The notes under the pieces are model-generated. The model was not told the DNA's origin, did not search any database, and saw only the letters and a program-made list of their open reading frames with translations. Below are positions 16,343 to 22,681 of a DNA stretch of 32,000 bases, in pieces. The position numbers and the translations under genes are program-made. The stretch lies in NCBI RefSeq assembly GCF_000092105.1, contig NC_014148.1:5220001-5252000 (forward strand), written 5' to 3'. Source of the DNA: Planctopirus limnophila DSM 3776. GTDB taxonomy: Bacteria; Planctomycetota; Planctomycetia; Planctomycetales; Planctomycetaceae. The first letter of the stretch is position 1. Every line of letters begins with the position of its first letter.

Positions 16343-17812
16343 CTAAGAAGCCAGCCCCAGCCAGTTTCGTAGTGGTGGAATTCTTCTCAGAATGACTCGT
16401 TCAATCAGCAGGACAGCCAGCAGCGAGACTCCGAACATGGGGAGCAGAATCCCCAAAAGGATCACGAAAAGCATGAAGGGTAGGGCAAAAAGGACTTCAT
16501 GACGCATCGCGATTTTTGATTCGGCAGGGGCACCTAACGTGCTTGGCGCTCGTCGTCGCCACCACATCAGTGGCCCCGTACAGGACAACAGGATCAGGCC
16601 AAGAGCCGTAAGTAAGCCGAGAAGTTGATTGGGCCAACCAAACAGTCGTCCTTCATGGAGGGCAATTCCAATACTGACAACGCGATCAATCCAGTGACGA
16701 TCAGAGAAAGTTTCGCGAGAGAGAATCGAACCTTGCATGGCGTCGATTTTCAGAGTCTCCCGCCAGGGACGATTCGCAGTCATTGATTTCACGGTCCAGG
16801 GCTGTCGCTCAGAAGCGGGTGGAGTCAAGATCACGGGATGTGGCAACTGGAGCGGCTCCACGACTTGTACAACGAGTGGCAACTGCGCCAACGTTTCGGG
16901 CGAGACCGGGGCGGCATTTCGTCTTCTGTTCGAGCGATCCGACTTTGTGGGAGATTCTCCGGCGTTCGAGCTGGATTCTCGTGAGGCATGCCCGGCATGT
17001 TCGCCATCAGCAGTTGTGGGAACGGTGGGTGATGCCTGTTTGGCCCCGGAAGTAACGGGTCGTGTCTGAGGGTTCTCCGAGCGATTCGACCAATCCTGCT
17101 GTGCGACGGACGTGCCCGTGAGCTTGCGGATCTCACGGAAGTAATCACCCCAGAAGTGAGACCATGGCAAACCGGAAACCAGCAGAATGAGTGCAAAGGC
17201 GGAGATCCAGAATCCCGTGACTCCATGCAGATCGCGGAGAAAACGCTGCCTTCCACTTGTGAAACGAGGGTAGAGAATCCCGCCGAAGCCACGCAGATGA
17301 CGGGGCCACCAGAGATAGAGTCCCGTAAGAATCATGATGATTGTCCAGGATGCAGCGAGCTCAACCAGATGAGAACCGTCCTCTCCAAGCATCAGTTCAC
17401 CATGCAACCGGAATATCTGGCGCATGAGTCGATCCTGTTCGGGAACTGCATGCAAAATGGCCAGCGTCTGTGGATGTACATAGATCCGCCAGTTCTTGCC
17501 GGCATCGCTGACGACAATTCGACTGGCATGATGGGGTAAGACGGGAAGCTCATAAGAAACAAAACGACTCTCTGGCTTTGACGCGAGAGCCGCTTGAACT
17601 TGCTCTGACAGACTTGCTGGCTGACCAGTCAGCACCAGATGGTTGTATGGCTGATCGAGCCAGTCTTCGATCTCGGCTTTGAAGAGATAGACGATTCCCG
17701 AGAGTGACAGAATGATGACAAACGGGACCGTGAAAAGCCCTGCATAGAAGTGCCATCGCCAGACAGTGCGATAGGCAGGCAATGCATATCTGAAGAATTC
17801 GCTGGTAGACAT
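16343..17812 (-). CDS. PepSY-associated TM-helix protein (PiuB/FoxB-like iron-regulated membrane protein family)
   Basis: The N-terminal YRTVWRWHFYAGLFTVPFVIILSLSGIVYLF, the later FLRDLHGVTGFWISAFALILLVSGL and the C-terminal IGIALHEGRLFGWPNQLLGLLTALGLILLSCTGPLMWWRRR are hallmark PepSY_TM repeats (conserved H residues preceding TM helices). Confidence 0.88.
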   Translation of the reverse strand: MSTSEFFRYALPAYRTVWRWHFYAGLFTVPFVIILSLSGIVYLFKAEIEDWLDQPYNHLVLTGQPASLSEQVQAALASKPESRFVSYELPVLPHHASRIVVSDAGKNWRIYVHPQTLAILHAVPEQDRLMRQIFRLHGELMLGEDGSHLVELAASWTIIMILTGLYLWWPRHLRGFGGILYPRFTSGRQRFLRDLHGVTGFWISAFALILLVSGLPWSHFWGDYFREIRKLTGTSVAQQDWSNRSENPQTRPVTSGAKQASPTVPTTADGEHAGHASRESSSNAGESPTKSDRSNRRRNAAPVSPETLAQLPLVVQVVEPLQLPHPVILTPPASERQPWTVKSMTANRPWRETLKIDAMQGSILSRETFSDRHWIDRVVSIGIALHEGRLFGWPNQLLGLLTALGLILLSCTGPLMWWRRRAPSTLGAPAESKIAMRHEVLFALPFMLFVILLGILLPMFGVSLLAVLLIERVILRRIPPLRNWLGLAS

Positions 17813-18005: not shown

Positions 18006-19109
18006 CTAGAACTCACCCAGAACCTCACCACCGTTGGTACTGTGAAGTCCACGATGAATTCGGGTGTCAATGTTGTCACCCAGGAAACGTACTGTGCCAT
18101 CGCCCATGAGTGCATGCGCCCCGCCCACGTGGTAGCTGCGCGGCCCAAAATAGCCGGTAAAGTGAGTCACCACATCAGGAATACGGCTATTCGGTGTGCT
18201 ATAGCCATTTGTGAGCGTACTGATCGCTCCTGAATGTGCCCAGGAGGTCCCACGGCCTCGCAGAGCCAGACTGGCGGCTCCTCGCCAGTTTGTCATGGTA
18301 GGCCATACCGCATTCAGATCCGGGTTTGCGATAAAGCCCTGGGCATTGGCAAACGATGACCAGGCCCCACCCGTGGGAGGCATCCCTTGAGACGTCCCGA
18401 GTGTCGTACCTACACCTGTAGAACCATTCATCGTGAGCTGATAAGGAAAGGGGGGTAGGGTACCCGCCGGGAATGTGACATCACTTCCGGTACTACGAAC
18501 CGACTCACTCATGAAAACGGTGTTCGACGTTCCATCAGTGACATCGCGCATGCGGACATTGCTGTTTTCATAGACGATGCCGTCTGTCTTCCAGCGAAGG
18601 TCGTAGTTGGTGCCTGTGCCGCTACCATAACTGACGAAATAGTTCGTACCGGCATAGATCGCACCGCCGGCACCAGTATTCTGGGTTGGCGCAGGATCAC
18701 TGGGGCAGAGCAACATGGCGAGAGGAGTTGCAAATGCGGCAGCAAAGTTTGGGTTGGGCACCAGGCTACTAAATGGCCCGGTAAATGCTGGTTGAGTAAA
18801 GTCCAGAGTATTCTGGAGGACAGCCTGATCAAAGTAAGGGAGTAAACGGGCTTGTGGCGAGAACCCCTGGGTATTTGGCAGGTAATTCTGGGCATTCACC
18901 ATGGGGAGCATTGTAAAGGTGCTCTCATAGTTATGCAGTGCGAGGCCGAACTGCTTGAGGTTATTACGACATTGCGTTCGTCGCGCCGCTTCTCGCGCCT
19001 GCTGAACGGCTGGCAACAGCAAAGCAATCAGGATGGCGATGATCGCGATCACCACCAGGAGCTCAATGAGTGTAAAGGCTTTTCGAATTTGTGAGGATCG
19101 CATTGACAT
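18006..19109 (-). CDS. DUF1559 protein, prepilin-type signal plus H-X9-DG (paralogue 2)
   Basis: [59 protein letters not shown]-terminal [22 protein letters not shown] is H-X9-DG. Confidence 0.92.
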
Positions 19110-19147: not shown

Positions 19148-20179
19148 TTAGAATTCGCTGACGACTTCACTACCAGAACGTGTGGCAATGTTCCGCCAGA
19201 TCGTGGCGTCGATGTTTTCACTGGTGAATCGAACTCCCCCATCGCCCATGAGGGTATGGACACCGCCTGTATGCCGACTGCGGGCGGCCTTGAAGCCTTG
19301 CGCCACCCAGAAGTAGCAGTCGTAGCGCCGGCTGTTCGGTGTGAAGTAGTGGTTGTAAGCGGTGTTCTCGTACGCCTGACCCGCCCAGACTCGATTTCGA
19401 CTGGCCACGAAGCGGGCGATACTCGCGGGCCTCGCCTGATCACAATTGGCAATTGTCACACTCGTGGGAGGGCTGACCAATGCCATATGCGTCTGTGCAT
19501 CAGGACTCTCAGTAGAAGCCGGGTCGGCACCACCAATCCCTAATAGACTTTCGGAGCAAAGAACCGTGTTCGATAAGCCATCCGTACAATCGGCAATCCT
19601 TCGCCAGGAGATGGAACTGAATAGACCATCGGCACGGTCGTCGCTCTGACCATCATCACTGATATCGGCCACATTGTTTATCCCAGAACCCATGCAGGCC
19701 ATATAGTTGGAAGGAGCAGAGTCAATCACCCCTGTGGGACTAGAAACATAGTCCGAGCGATCACTCGGACAAAGATAGGTCGGAATCTTTGTCATGATCG
19801 TATTGACGTGCATGGCACGTGGCGGCTGGCCACCTCCGGGCGGATAGAGGGACCAGTTCAGATCCAACTGATTGAGCGTGTTGGCCTGATCGACGTAAGG
19901 GAGGATATACGCCAGGAAACTCCAGCGCATCGTGGTGCTTTGTGCGACGTTGTTGTGTCCGTTCCAGCCGCAGGGAAAGCGGCCGAATGTCGATTCATAG
20001 TTGTGCAGAGCGAGGCCAATCTGCTTGAGATTGTTACGGCACTGCGTTCGCCGGGCTGCTTCCCGAGCCTGTTGAACGGCGGGAAGCAGCAGAGCAATCA
20101 AAATGGCGATGATCGCGATCACCACCAGGAGTTCAATGAGTGTGAAGCCTCGGTGACGAGGAGTATCAGGAACTTTCAT
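19148..20179 (-). CDS. DUF1559 protein, prepilin-type signal plus H-X9-DG (paralogue 3)
   Basis: Start chosen at the Met at 20179 ([66 protein letters not shown]). C-terminal [22 protein letters not shown] is H-X9-DG. The longest ORF extends to 20308. Confidence 0.9.
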
Positions 20180-20311
20180 AAAGAGGTCTTTCTCGGGATC
20201 AATGTTGTATAGATAGTCACTTGACGACCGGCGCACTTTGAGTGAGTAGGTTTCTACCCTGCGGCCGGAGTGACGGTATGAACGATACATGCCAAACTCA
20301 GCCTGCAATCA

Positions 20312-21112
20312 TCAGCGGGCGATGTTCAGCGTGAGTGTGGCGGCGTAGTGAGAGCGTTCGTACTTCTCACCGGTTTCGTCATCAGCGGCATGATGGACGA
20401 CGACCAGGTAGTAGTTGGCTTCCGCCGGTGTGAACGTGGCCTTGCCAGAGGCATCGGTCTTGCGTTCAAAGTTTGGGTCAAAATCGGCGGCGAGCTCTGC
20501 ACCGCGGGGGATAAACGACATGGTCGCATCGGCCAGCGGTTTCCCCTTGAGAAGCACCTGAACTGTGATCGGCTCGCCCGCCTTGGCTGTGGCCGGATTG
20601 CTCTGCGGTACCAGTTCGATGGGCTGGCCCAGCGGCTTCAAAGGATCGACACCTCCAGCCTTTTCACCGACCTGGAAGTAGCATTTCGCGTTGCGATAAG
20701 CGCGCGTGGTGCCGTGGATCGTATCGAGAGACTGAGCAGCGACATAGAGGCCCGGCTGATGGGCGACCTGCCGCACCGACCAGAAGCCTTCTTTTGCGGC
20801 ATTACCAATATCGGCCACGCGCGACTTGAGATCCTGCTGGTTTCCATCGGGTGAGATCAGGTCAAAGCTGACCTTTTCAATGCCGATCTTGCTGGCGAGT
20901 TTGAAATCGCGGTGTTCGTTGCCGTGATTACCGAGCATGAGATCGATATGAACCACTTCGCCGGGAGCTACCTGGGCGACATTGGTCTGAACCCAGGTAT
21001 CGTGAGCGCTAGCGATGGTACTGATAGCCGCCACGCTTAAAGCCAGAATGGCATGTGCCAGAATCGAAGTCGCACTTGCCTTATGATTGATCATCATTAA
21101 CGAAGCCAGCAT
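20312..21112 (-). CDS. DUF4198-like periplasmic protein (family associated with Ni/Co uptake; beta-sandwich)
   Basis: Signal peptide ending IASA/HDTWVQ. A mature N-terminus of the H-D-x-W type is typical of DUF4198. The body is beta-rich, and the C-terminal segment (GEPITVQVLLKGKPLADATMSFIP...DASGKATFTPAEANYYLVVVHH) resembles the transthyretin-like part of the family. A strong SD (GAGGAGGG) sits 5 nt upstream of the ATG. Confidence 0.65.
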   Translation of the reverse strand: MLASLMMINHKASATSILAHAILALSVAAISTIASAHDTWVQTNVAQVAPGEVVHIDLMLGNHGNEHRDFKLASKIGIEKVSFDLISPDGNQQDLKSRVADIGNAAKEGFWSVRQVAHQPGLYVAAQSLDTIHGTTRAYRNAKCYFQVGEKAGGVDPLKPLGQPIELVPQSNPATAKAGEPITVQVLLKGKPLADATMSFIPRGAELAADFDPNFERKTDASGKATFTPAEANYYLVVVHHAADDETGEKYERSHYAATLTLNIAR

Positions 21113-21282
21113 ACAACCCTCCTCGGGTATTGAGATGTCAGTGAAATTGAACGAACTCTCAGGCCATGCAGAGCAAGACCATTCGTGAACTGAGACTCTC
21201 GGGGCAGAAAACGACCAACACGCACAAAGCGAGTGCGGTTCAAGCCATCAGAGCGTCTGCCCGGGGCATCCAGAATGGGGCG

Positions 21283-21310
21283 GTTGATGGGCTATTCATT
21301 GCCCATCAAC
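21283..21310. repeat. Perfect 10-bp inverted repeat GTTGATGGGC-N8-GCCCATCAAC in the long leader upstream of the DUF4198 gene
   Basis: Read directly: 21283-21292 gttgatgggc, 21301-21310 gcccatcaac. No T-run follows on either strand, so an operator or RNA structure is more likely than a terminator. Confidence 0.6.
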
Positions 21311-21531
21311 GCATGGACGATCTCGTCTCGTGTGAAGCTCAATTGAGAGCGCAGCGAGTGCCAGCAGAGCCGAAACTGCGCACCAGGTCGAGATTCAACG
21401 ATGGCGTTACATTGCGGATAAGGCAGGCTTGCTCAGAGCCGCAAGCATGGCACTTATCTTCGCTGGAACGCGAAATCGATTGAGGATCTTCGGCGCAGTA
21501 AGGCACACGGAATGAGATCGTGAGAGAGCGT

Positions 21532-22395
21532 TCAACCGGGAGGAGAGAGCCGGTTGTAGAAGACTTCACAGGGAATTCCCTGCGAAGGAGCGAAGGTTGA
21601 CTGATGTGGTGACCACGGTTGCCACGACATGGCGATCGGTGGCGTGGTCAGGGGCTCTGTGAGCATGGTCCACATGGAGCCGGCACCTTGACACTTCAGA
21701 GTATCTAGCCACGGTACCGATGAAGTTGGTGCCGATTCTGGCTCAGACAGCGACGACTTCTGGGCCTGCAATTGACTTGCTGATGGATTTGCGGGTGAGG
21801 AGGGAGCACAGCAGGCAGGCTTGCTGGCAACAGGAACGGGCTCTGTTTTGGTGCCTTTCTGAGTGACCGAGCAACAGCTTGAAGAGGATGTGTTCTTAGT
21901 TTCTACAAGAATTGTTTTCGCAGTCTTCGGGGGAGTCAATTCGACGGAAGATCTGCGTGAGCAGAGAGTGCCATCGTCTCCGCGAGCCGCCTGCATGCGG
22001 AGTTCGCGTAAGGAAGTCGAAATTTGCGATCCGTGGGCAGATGTTTTTTCGGCAGTGTTTTGCAATTGGGACGATCTGGTTTTTCCCATAGAACAGCATG
22101 AGGAAGCCTGGGAGGGAACTGGTGGAGTTGGCTTCTCCACGAGAGCTTCCGGGAGGTGCATGCCATTGAGCTTCGCCCAGAGTTGTCGTTCCACGGGTGT
22201 ATAGCAACAGCAGTTTTTCCAGCATTGCGTCGCCGAGGCACAGCCACATTTGTGACCTGCGCAAGGGAATGCGCCGCCGGACATGAGACTCAGCGAGTTG
22301 GTCGAGAATCCCCATGCGCCGATGCAATAAGAGACAATGAGCAGGACGCCAGTGAGTTTTCTTCGCCAGTCGCCAGTGGCCAGTTCCCGGATCAT
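21532..22395 (-). CDS. Cysteine-rich, single-pass membrane-anchored protein of unknown function (putative metal- or redox-centre-binding)
   Basis: The Met at 22395 gives MIRELATGDWRRKLTGVLLIVSYCIGAWGF (N-terminal anchor). This is followed by FPCAGHKCGCASATQCWKNCCCYTP and then three CC doublets in S/T/P-rich linkers (SSCCS, SSSCCS, PACCAPS). The conserved-looking C-terminal segment is LKCQGAGSMWTMLTEP...GIPCEVF. The longest ORF extends to 22509. No family recognised. Confidence 0.6.
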   Translation of the reverse strand: MIRELATGDWRRKLTGVLLIVSYCIGAWGFSTNSLSLMSGGAFPCAGHKCGCASATQCWKNCCCYTPVERQLWAKLNGMHLPEALVEKPTPPVPSQASSCCSMGKTRSSQLQNTAEKTSAHGSQISTSLRELRMQAARGDDGTLCSRRSSVELTPPKTAKTILVETKNTSSSSCCSVTQKGTKTEPVPVASKPACCAPSSPANPSASQLQAQKSSLSEPESAPTSSVPWLDTLKCQGAGSMWTMLTEPLTTPPIAMSWQPWSPHQSTFAPSQGIPCEVFYNRLSPPG

Positions 22396-22681
22396 TTTTT
22401 GACCGGCACCCCATACGACTAGACAGAATGAAACGAAACGTTCACTCGCAATCTGGCATCGATGGTGGGTTGAAACCAACGGGCGGGACATAAATATCTG
22501 CTTGGGCACCCTGACGACGGAGTGATCGCATCATTTTTGCTCGACTGAAACTCAATAGTTTATCCGCGTGCATGTGGATTGGAATCTTCCACCAGCTACG
22601 AATCAGCGAATTCCCATGGATGGGACATCATAGCGAAGTCTAAGGCGAGGGTATCGAAATCACTGTAACATAATACTGAGA

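Follow-up and report, generated by a model that had tools for sequence, protein, structure and literature searches.

The window analysed here is a 32,000-nt stretch of the Planctopirus limnophila DSM 3776 genome (contig NC_014148.1, positions 5,220,001 to 5,252,000). It carries a gene for a cysteine-rich, signal-anchored protein of 287 amino acids (aa) at 21532..22395 on the minus strand, as do all features of the window given below. The gene reads from an ATG at 22395 to a TGA at 21532-21534. Downstream follow a long intergenic leader, a DUF4198 gene, two DUF1559 genes and a PepSY_TM gene. The initial annotation had already put this gene first in a block containing DUF4198 and PepSY_TM, an arrangement that close relatives preserve. 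Judged by its sequence, the protein is one of a large, unnamed family of Planctomycetota proteins that are membrane-anchored and carry a cysteine cluster, and the layout of its C-terminal end makes it a candidate sensor that acts while it is being translated.

The open reading frame (ORF) listed for the gene is longer (21532..22509) and begins at a GTG, and databases likewise extend the gene into the stretch 5′ of the ATG at 22395. We compared the window gene codon by codon with two relatives at 88% protein identity, scoring synonymous differences (pS) and the ratio of nonsynonymous to synonymous differences (pN/pS). The 96 nt 5′ of the ATG (22396-22491) are 96-99% identical to the two relatives, with a pS of 0.045 and no codon pattern. 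They are therefore better read as a conserved non-coding leader than as an N-terminal extension. The longer starts (GTG/ATG at 22509 and 22491) were ruled out on this ground and because family N-termini, with the consensus RR-x-hydrophobic-G-x-P-x-P, fit the ATG at 22395, the start chosen initially. The conserved non-coding region as a whole (22396..22495) shows no codon periodicity, and its identity compares with only about 90% in the coding sequence of the relatives. It has no special fold (z = +0.25) and is likely a promoter or a protein-bound 5′ leader.

Within the gene, pN/pS is 0.07 in the transmembrane (TM) segment and 0.03-0.06 in the cysteine domain, with a pS of about 0.3 in both. 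It rises to 0.4-0.5 in the linker and is 0.32 in the tail, where pS is unusually low (0.09-0.16); pS falls to these values across the last 180 nt of the gene. Because of the low ratios in the TM segment and the cysteine domain, we take the gene to be real and under purifying selection. A spurious or decaying ORF with a chance density of cysteines would account for the low-complexity, disordered and fast-evolving linker, and broken copies exist: P0004, from the public assembly of a close relative, is frameshifted, and one of the G070 paralogues, a second family copy, is interrupted by a TGA (L049:7029-7711; G070:C1:4037682-4038307). These are occasional pseudogenes or assembly errors. The conservation data already refute this explanation and leave it a probability close to nil, since homologues form 1,453 clusters with several invariant columns, pN/pS is 0.03-0.07 and synteny is kept.

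The protein begins with a single TM helix or signal anchor at aa 8-29 (22309..22374), modelled by AlphaFold2 as a helix with a predicted local distance difference test (pLDDT) score of 77-87. A basic RRK stands ahead of this one hydrophobic helix and therefore implies an N-in/C-out topology for the predicted protein. The CutF-like class discussed below calls for an N-terminal signal peptide; the window protein shows a basic N-terminus with one hydrophobic helix, which may be an uncleaved anchor. A small helical cysteine domain follows at aa 41-90 (22126..22275), marked by invariant columns, fixed spacing and a pLDDT of 82-96. Its core motif, F-P-C-x2-H-x-C-G-C-x2-A-x-Q-C-W-x2-C-C-C-x-T-x6-W-A, lies at 22204-22263. 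Here PCAGHKCGCASATQCWKNCCCY (aa 44-65) holds seven cysteines (45, 50, 52, 58, 62, 63 and 64) and His48. The next segment, aa 91-226 (21718..22125), is a disordered linker rich in Ser, Thr and Pro (pLDDT <50) with three CC doublets, ASSCCS (100-101), SSSCCS (174-175) and PACCAPS (195-196). Beyond it stands the invariant Cys235 in a K-C-Q-G motif (codon at 21691..21693), 51 residues before the last proline. The remainder (21535..21690) is fixed in length and poorly conserved, and is a candidate arrest segment. It ends ...LSPPG-stop, with Pro285-Pro286-Gly287 encoded at 21535-21543. The anchored protein with its cluster of seven cysteines and one histidine, its three doublets and its two tail cysteines, as first described, is thus all present in the translation. 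The Trp/Pro-rich C-terminal module, with Cys235 and Cys275, is also there; what the first description missed is the fixed 51-residue spacer and its polyproline next to the stop.

AlphaFold2 was run with the family alignment on two proteins, the window protein and a typical member of 217 aa. Both models show a TM helix, then a small three-helix cysteine domain (pLDDT 82-96), then the linker (pLDDT <50), then, at the invariant C-x-G, a short strand with two helices (pLDDT 66-80), and a last stretch of about 40 residues devoid of secondary structure. In the typical member the TM-type helix spans 12-31 (pLDDT 88-92), and the strand at the invariant C-x-G adjoins the strand that follows the TM helix. 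For the cluster, a thiophilic metal site or a thiol-redox site is the most plausible chemistry. A single metal cannot be named: a thiolate-rich site favours Cu(I), and DUF4198 points to Ni or Zn.

A fold of this kind raises the possibility of a stable protein. The gene product could be a membrane-anchored periplasmic cysteine-cluster protein, either a metal chaperone or store or a thiol-disulfide relay, that partners DUF1559 and PepSY_TM proteins in metal uptake. Its polyproline end would then be a structural or protein-binding motif and no arrest signal. The N-terminal domain is confidently folded and strongly constrained, the ten conserved cysteines are more than known leaders need, and AlphaFold2 docks the segment with the invariant cysteine near the N-terminal domain. 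We regard this explanation, the chief alternative, as possible but doubtful, and it is not mutually exclusive with the co-translational sensor that we favour. The features that it leaves unexplained emerge from the family as a whole.

A word-indexed search returned relatives both near and far. Run exhaustively, phmmer yielded 1,453 clusters (taken as 50% identity representatives) at a threshold of E ≤ 1e-3 and 109 at one of E ≤ 1e-10; the matches are mostly 180-260 aa long and align in two stretches, N- and C-terminal. Every named homologue is from Planctomycetota, and a profile search returned only 'hypothetical protein' entries, all from this phylum (Pirellulales, Planctomycetaceae, Rubinisphaera). 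Among 301 sampled genomes of the phylum, 27 have a match, including 8 of 15 in the family to which the window organism belongs, with one to three copies per genome and a single copy in the window genome. Two other families hold short forms of 143-171 aa. Hydrazine synthase was found in all five short-form genomes tested (5/5), which are therefore anammox bacteria. The initial failure to place the protein in a named family holds up under Pfam, NCBIfam, Protein Data Bank (PDB) sequence and Foldseek searches. Pfam and NCBIfam scans of the window protein gave no family, scanning 65 family members against Pfam at E ≤ 5 produced noise only, a profile search of PDB sequences gave nothing meaningful, and Foldseek searches of the two AlphaFold2 models against the PDB gave 0 and 1 irrelevant hits.

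Members share a five-part signature: a TM helix; C-x4-C-G-C-x5-C-x3-CCC; a disordered linker; an invariant C-x-G; and a polyproline end near the stop. Across 50-65 aligned members, P44, C45, C50, G51, C52, C58, C62-C64, W73, A74, C235 and G237 are invariant. Conservation of the cysteines in homologues therefore holds for the seven of the cluster and for Cys235. It does not hold for Cys275 and two of the CC doublets, which are lineage-specific; a single doublet is family-wide. We counted spacing and linker length over 165 members with the complete signature. The spacing C-x4-C-x-C-x5-C-x3-CCC is identical in 159 of them, and two positions ahead of CGC, 114 have His and 27 have Arg. The linker runs from 31 to 175 aa (median 90), is often rich in His and Cys, and has at least one CC doublet in 149 of the 165.

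The C-terminal end is the most telling part of the signature. In 155 of 191 members, 1-5 residues separate the last Pro-Pro from the C-terminus, and in 177 it falls within the final 15. Two versions of this end occur: in one, PP-x-PPPR has 0-4 residues after it; in the other, the stop comes immediately after PP-x-PPG, and to this PPG-stop subclass the window protein belongs. Among long ORFs of the same genome, PP occurs in the last seven residues in 2.8% and PPP near the end in 0.34%. The terminal prolines are kept through codons that vary between loci, which argues for selection on the peptide. Counted from the invariant cysteine, the last proline is 51 residues away in 107 of 173 members, and in 134 the count is 50-52; most outliers arise where a later cysteine was picked by mistake. 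In the anammox short forms, too, the distance is 51-53, despite a spacer of unrelated sequence. We consider this 51-residue spacer, together with the stop-proximal polyproline, to be the decisive feature, and by analogy with known leaders it makes a sensor-regulator more likely than a plain metalloprotein. A stable protein leaves unexplained why about 80% of members place a proline motif 1-5 residues from the stop, and why a little-conserved, unstructured tail keeps an exact length across the phylum.

The genes downstream point to metal handling. The first encodes a predicted periplasmic metal-binding DUF4198 protein (20312..21112; Pfam PF10670, E = 1e-37), whose predicted mature N-terminus is a histidine (ASA/HDTW at the predicted cleavage site). 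The DUF4198 family is periplasmic and binds Ni or Zn, with metal contacts made by an N-terminal His, which is frequent in the family, or by His sites (PMC12537917, PMC12663993). Next come two pilin-like DUF1559 proteins. The first, of clade B (19148..20179; Pfam SBP_bac_10 and N_methyl), clusters in the tree with the DUF1559 genes adjacent to the cysteine gene in L047 and L049. We took its start at Met44; the listed 386-aa ORF (19148-20308, minus strand) probably starts there (nt 20179), just before the prepilin motif, and a relative is annotated at 343 aa. The second, of clade A (18006..19109; Pfam match), is of the clade that precedes PepSY_TM. Its nearest relatives are the adjacent DUF1559 genes of L046, L045, L042, L010 and L044, not the other 62 paralogues of the genome. 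The PepSY_TM membrane protein (16343..17812; Pfam PF03929, E = 4e-71) is the only one of the genome: a whole-genome search gave a single PepSY_TM match and no TonB Plug domain, that is, no TonB-dependent transporter (TBDT). The window genome, G000, is 5.46 Mb and 100% complete. The two 88%-identity relatives share the order CNNM, cysteine gene, DUF4198, two DUF1559, PepSY_TM, a gene of no assigned function and a redoxin; the membrane-anchored redoxin lies in the same gene block.

Co-occurrence with DUF4198, which the initial annotation had suggested as a check, is confined to the window and its closest relatives, and DUF4198 was rejected as the conserved partner. That role falls to DUF1559. 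All contexts examined have a next gene of the same orientation 60-530 nt away, and the neighbour on the upstream side is frequently divergent. Among the long-form loci analysed, this directly downstream gene encodes a prepilin-type protein, usually DUF1559. The genome has about 80 DUF1559 genes, so that a DUF1559 neighbour would be expected by chance in about 2%. A tree was built from 64 paralogues of the window genome and the cysteine-gene neighbours from other genomes. The nearest relatives of most adjacent DUF1559 genes are the two in the window cluster; the remaining ones group together, and only that of L007 is nearest to another paralogue of the window genome. The module was therefore inherited as a unit. 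The order cysteine gene, DUF1559, PepSY_TM recurs in L010, L044, L045 and L046, as in the window, where DUF4198 and two DUF1559 genes occupy the middle. This tight linkage to one specific DUF1559 clade, and the membrane-anchored redoxin in the block, would also fit a stable partner protein; against it stands the ratio of one copy per genome to some 80 DUF1559 genes.

Other loci widen the picture. In L009:6862-10260, from a metagenome-assembled genome of Planctomycetaceae, the family gene is followed by four pseudopilin genes that lack DUF1559, by PilM/N/O-like genes and by a type II secretion system ATPase (T2SS-E), so the link is with prepilin-type proteins in general. Directly after the short-form genes of anammox bacteria lie genes for a secreted protein of about 280 aa, with a predicted N-terminal His, a C-terminal Gly/His tail and no Pfam family, and for outer-membrane barrels of the Phenol_MetA_deg type with Met/His-rich loops (MDMDMKMRMRHQMD...). 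The loci concerned are L052:7843-8685(+), L053:5722-6570(-), L053:4549-5697(-), L056:5302-6348(-) and L057:10107-11153(+). By sequence, these proteins look like copper-handling proteins. A GspG-like gene lies near one anammox locus.

Such contexts bear on a further explanation, in which the gene product would be a monitoring substrate of the SecM/MifM/ApdA type. Its arrest would be released by export pull, oxidative folding or pilin assembly, with no metal involved, and would tune the pilin-like or type II secretion-like genes downstream to the status of the envelope. An N-terminal anchor and a C-terminal arrest-like motif are what Sec/YidC monitors have (PMC12992588), the directly downstream gene is always of the prepilin type, L009 holds a whole pseudopilin/T2SS-E operon, the GspG-like gene lies near an anammox locus, and eight invariant cysteines could make four disulfides. 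However, many contexts contain metal-linked genes (DUF4198, PepSY_TM, Met/His-loop barrels, N-terminal-His proteins), and the His/Cys-rich linkers point to a metal over export capacity. We consider a monitor of this kind unlikely.

The junction between the cysteine gene and DUF4198 is constrained at the nucleotide level. The 419-nt intergenic leader (21113..21531) is strongly structured, with a minimum free energy (MFE) of -175.4 kcal/mol (z = -5.0 against shuffles), and it is more conserved than the coding sequence: identity to the relative L062 is 95% in the leader and 89% in the coding sequence. A C-rich, G-poor stretch (C/G about 2) covers 21600-21463, which comprises the last 70 nt of the gene and the first 70 nt or so of the leader. 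By analogy, this is the composition expected of a Rho loading site that a stalled ribosome could mask, a likeness that is only suggestive. An intrinsic terminator scan of the junction found none, a promoter/terminator scan was uninformative, and Rfam scans of the window region and eight related loci found no match. A stable protein leaves the nucleotide conservation of the gene's 3′ end and of the leader unexplained.

A separate RNA feature was seen in other genomes. A conserved element of about 95 nt lies between the cysteine-family gene and the DUF1559 gene in several genera (L041:6825-6945(-), L043:7890-8010(+), L047:7875-7995(+), L007:8820-8940(+) and L010:6870-6990(+), with weaker copies at L010:5895-6015(-) and L043:6915-7035(-)). 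It forms a long predicted stem (GCGGC..CGCGCTCAC / GTGAGCG..GCCGC) capped by an invariant GYTCRCTCTYCACAR, and both sides have changed in 12 of the 32 predicted pairs. Rfam has no match for it, and a search of the window genome did not find it. The pattern makes it a candidate new cis-regulatory RNA.

Two described leader systems, CruR and CutF, neither of which builds up as a protein, frame our interpretation. CruR (Bp2923 of Bordetella pertussis, DUF2946/PF11162) leads the operon cruR-bfrG(TBDT)-bp2921(PepSY_TM) and controls the TBDT and PepSY_TM genes through copper-dependent relief of arrest and Rho termination. Its CXXC and RAPP motifs are spaced by 45 residues, give or take 1-2, across more than 2,000 DUF2946 sequences, and RAPP stands three residues before the stop (PMC9426467). 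Arrest at RAPP was later shown in vitro (PMC12992588). CutF of Rhodobacter capsulatus has a signal peptide, a CxxxC and a C-terminal PPP, which couple periplasmic copper to the translation of cutO (PMC9973294; bioRxiv 10.1101/2025.02.05.636593).

We propose, with a probability of about 0.5, that the window protein is a nascent-chain metal or thiol sensor of the CruR/CutF kind, non-homologous to both, which would regulate the downstream DUF4198, DUF1559 and PepSY_TM genes. From the observed anatomy, conservation and context we infer stalling, a ligand and a regulatory output. The N-terminal anchor would take the nascent chain to the translocon, and the domain with seven cysteines and one histidine would fold on the periplasmic side. 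The ribosome would then pause at the terminal polyproline codons, here those of Pro-Pro-Gly-stop. At this pause the invariant cysteine, 51 residues upstream, would just have cleared the ribosome and the translocon. Either a thiophilic metal (Cu, Ni, Zn or Co) or the oxidation of thiols may decide whether the cysteine docks with its segment onto the N-terminal cluster, and such docking could lengthen or relieve the pause. Paused there, the ribosome would sit over the gene's C-rich 3′ end and over the first part of the structured leader. Its position could set read-through into the downstream genes, in a Rho-type manner as for CruR, or the initiation of their translation, as for CutF. The downstream genes DUF4198, DUF1559, DUF1559 and PepSY_TM are probably a metal-acquisition route in an organism without TBDTs.

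Several lines of evidence lead us to the sensor. The design elements of CutF and CruR, namely an anchor, a cysteine site and a near-stop proline motif, are all family-wide. The ruler from cysteine to proline is fixed, although linker lengths range from 31 to 175 aa. Little of the tail sequence is conserved and no secondary structure is predicted for it, yet its prolines are kept through varying codons. The next gene is on the same strand, and the downstream content parallels cruR-TBDT-PepSY_TM. The junction is constrained as nucleotide sequence, through its identity (95% against 89%), low pS, folding (z = -5) and C-rich composition. Finally, the DUF1559 neighbours form an inherited module.

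Other observations weigh against this proposal. At 287 aa (about 200 aa in the family), the protein exceeds the described leaders (<150 aa). Its well-folded, conserved N-terminal module (pLDDT up to 96, pN/pS 0.03) would suit a stable functional protein as well. A folded or docking segment might account for the constant 51 residues; in the AlphaFold2 prediction the strand and two helices round the invariant cysteine contact the region after the TM helix. The proline motif is PPxPPPR or PPG, unlike the RAPP of CruR, and the intergenic distance of 419 nt (60-530 nt in the family) is longer than that of the CutF-like class, mostly <100 nt. Homology to DUF2946 was rejected, as hhalign against 10 Planctomycetota DUF2946 sequences gave a probability of 5.7%. 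PF11162 has no match in the window protein or in 65 members at E ≤ 5, and a genome search with it misses the locus. A pairing of the Pro-Pro-Gly-stop codons (UCCUCCCGG UUGAACG) with the DUF4198 Shine-Dalgarno sequence was seen by RNAalifold and bounded-fragment MFE only. It was dropped because longer flanks reduce it to 0.8 expected pairs and because it is absent in 10 other loci.

What is new is an unannotated, phylum-specific family that repeats the layout of CruR and CutF, though from different sequence elements and with new client genes. To our knowledge, metal-sensing arrest leaders were described only in 2022-2025, and almost only from Proteobacteria. If the sensor proposal is true, the metal-sensing arrest principle extends to Planctomycetota by an independent sequence solution. 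Tentatively, the family could even be a new sensor class, in which a folded periplasmic site of eight cysteines becomes complete during translation, through a cysteine that precedes a polyproline arrest by 51 residues, so that the metal or thiol-redox status of the periplasm would set DUF1559 and PepSY_TM expression. DUF1559 is the largest enigmatic protein family of Planctomycetes, hugely expanded and without a function. Our results link one defined DUF1559 clade to PepSY_TM and DUF4198 metal genes in a genome that lacks a TBDT. If true, this would be the first functional assignment for a DUF1559 clade, within a metal-uptake route that replaces TBDTs, and it makes the long-standing question of the role of DUF1559 directly testable. 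It would also provide a working annotation for more than 1,400 sequence clusters that are now 'hypothetical protein'.

Set beside CruR, the window protein is likewise exported or anchored and heads an operon that ends in a PepSY_TM gene. Both have an invariant cysteine site and a near-fixed spacer to a near-stop Pro-Pro (45 residues from CXXC to RAPP in CruR, 51 from the cysteine to the last proline here). That the spacing is fixed within 1-2 residues, as in DUF2946, is an analogous property and no evidence of homology. In both, a long intergenic region rules out translational coupling, and a C-rich, rut-like region surrounds the stop. Unlike in CruR, the ruler starts from a single cysteine (K-C-x-G) and no CXXC, and a separate folded seven-cysteine domain and a CC doublet are present. 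Members are about 200-290 aa long, against 145 aa for CruR, and the transporter slot holds a pilin-like DUF1559 protein, not a TBDT. True DUF2946 genes exist elsewhere in Planctomycetota, in G223 together with the cysteine family.

With CutF the protein shares a periplasm-exposed cysteine motif, a same-strand gene located downstream, a structured intergenic RNA and a proline-rich C-terminal end; the PPP stalling motif of CutF is sensitive to elongation factor P (EF-P). The CutF-like class, defined by rules in Ozturk et al. 2023 (PMC9973294), includes published cases with a pilin-type signal on the downstream protein. Its rule of <150 aa sets it apart from the window protein (287 aa) and from most members (180-260 aa), and only the anammox short forms (143-171 aa) come near it. 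Also unlike CutF, a stem that hides the Shine-Dalgarno sequence is not robustly predicted, and the downstream genes do not encode a multicopper oxidase or efflux proteins.

The arrest peptides of the RAPP/RAGP type, SecM, ApdA, ApdP and ApcA (PMC12992588, PMC10987492), likewise combine an N-terminal targeting segment with an arrest-like core near the stop, and the region N-terminal to their core tolerates sequence change, as here. The differences are the polyproline core, the additional cysteine-cluster domain and downstream genes that are not Sec/YidC components. The cysteine architecture and the candidate arrest motif differ from those of CruR, yet the ruler is nearly the same, which suggests that selection has acted on geometry, placing a sensor residue about 50 residues away from the peptidyl-transferase centre.

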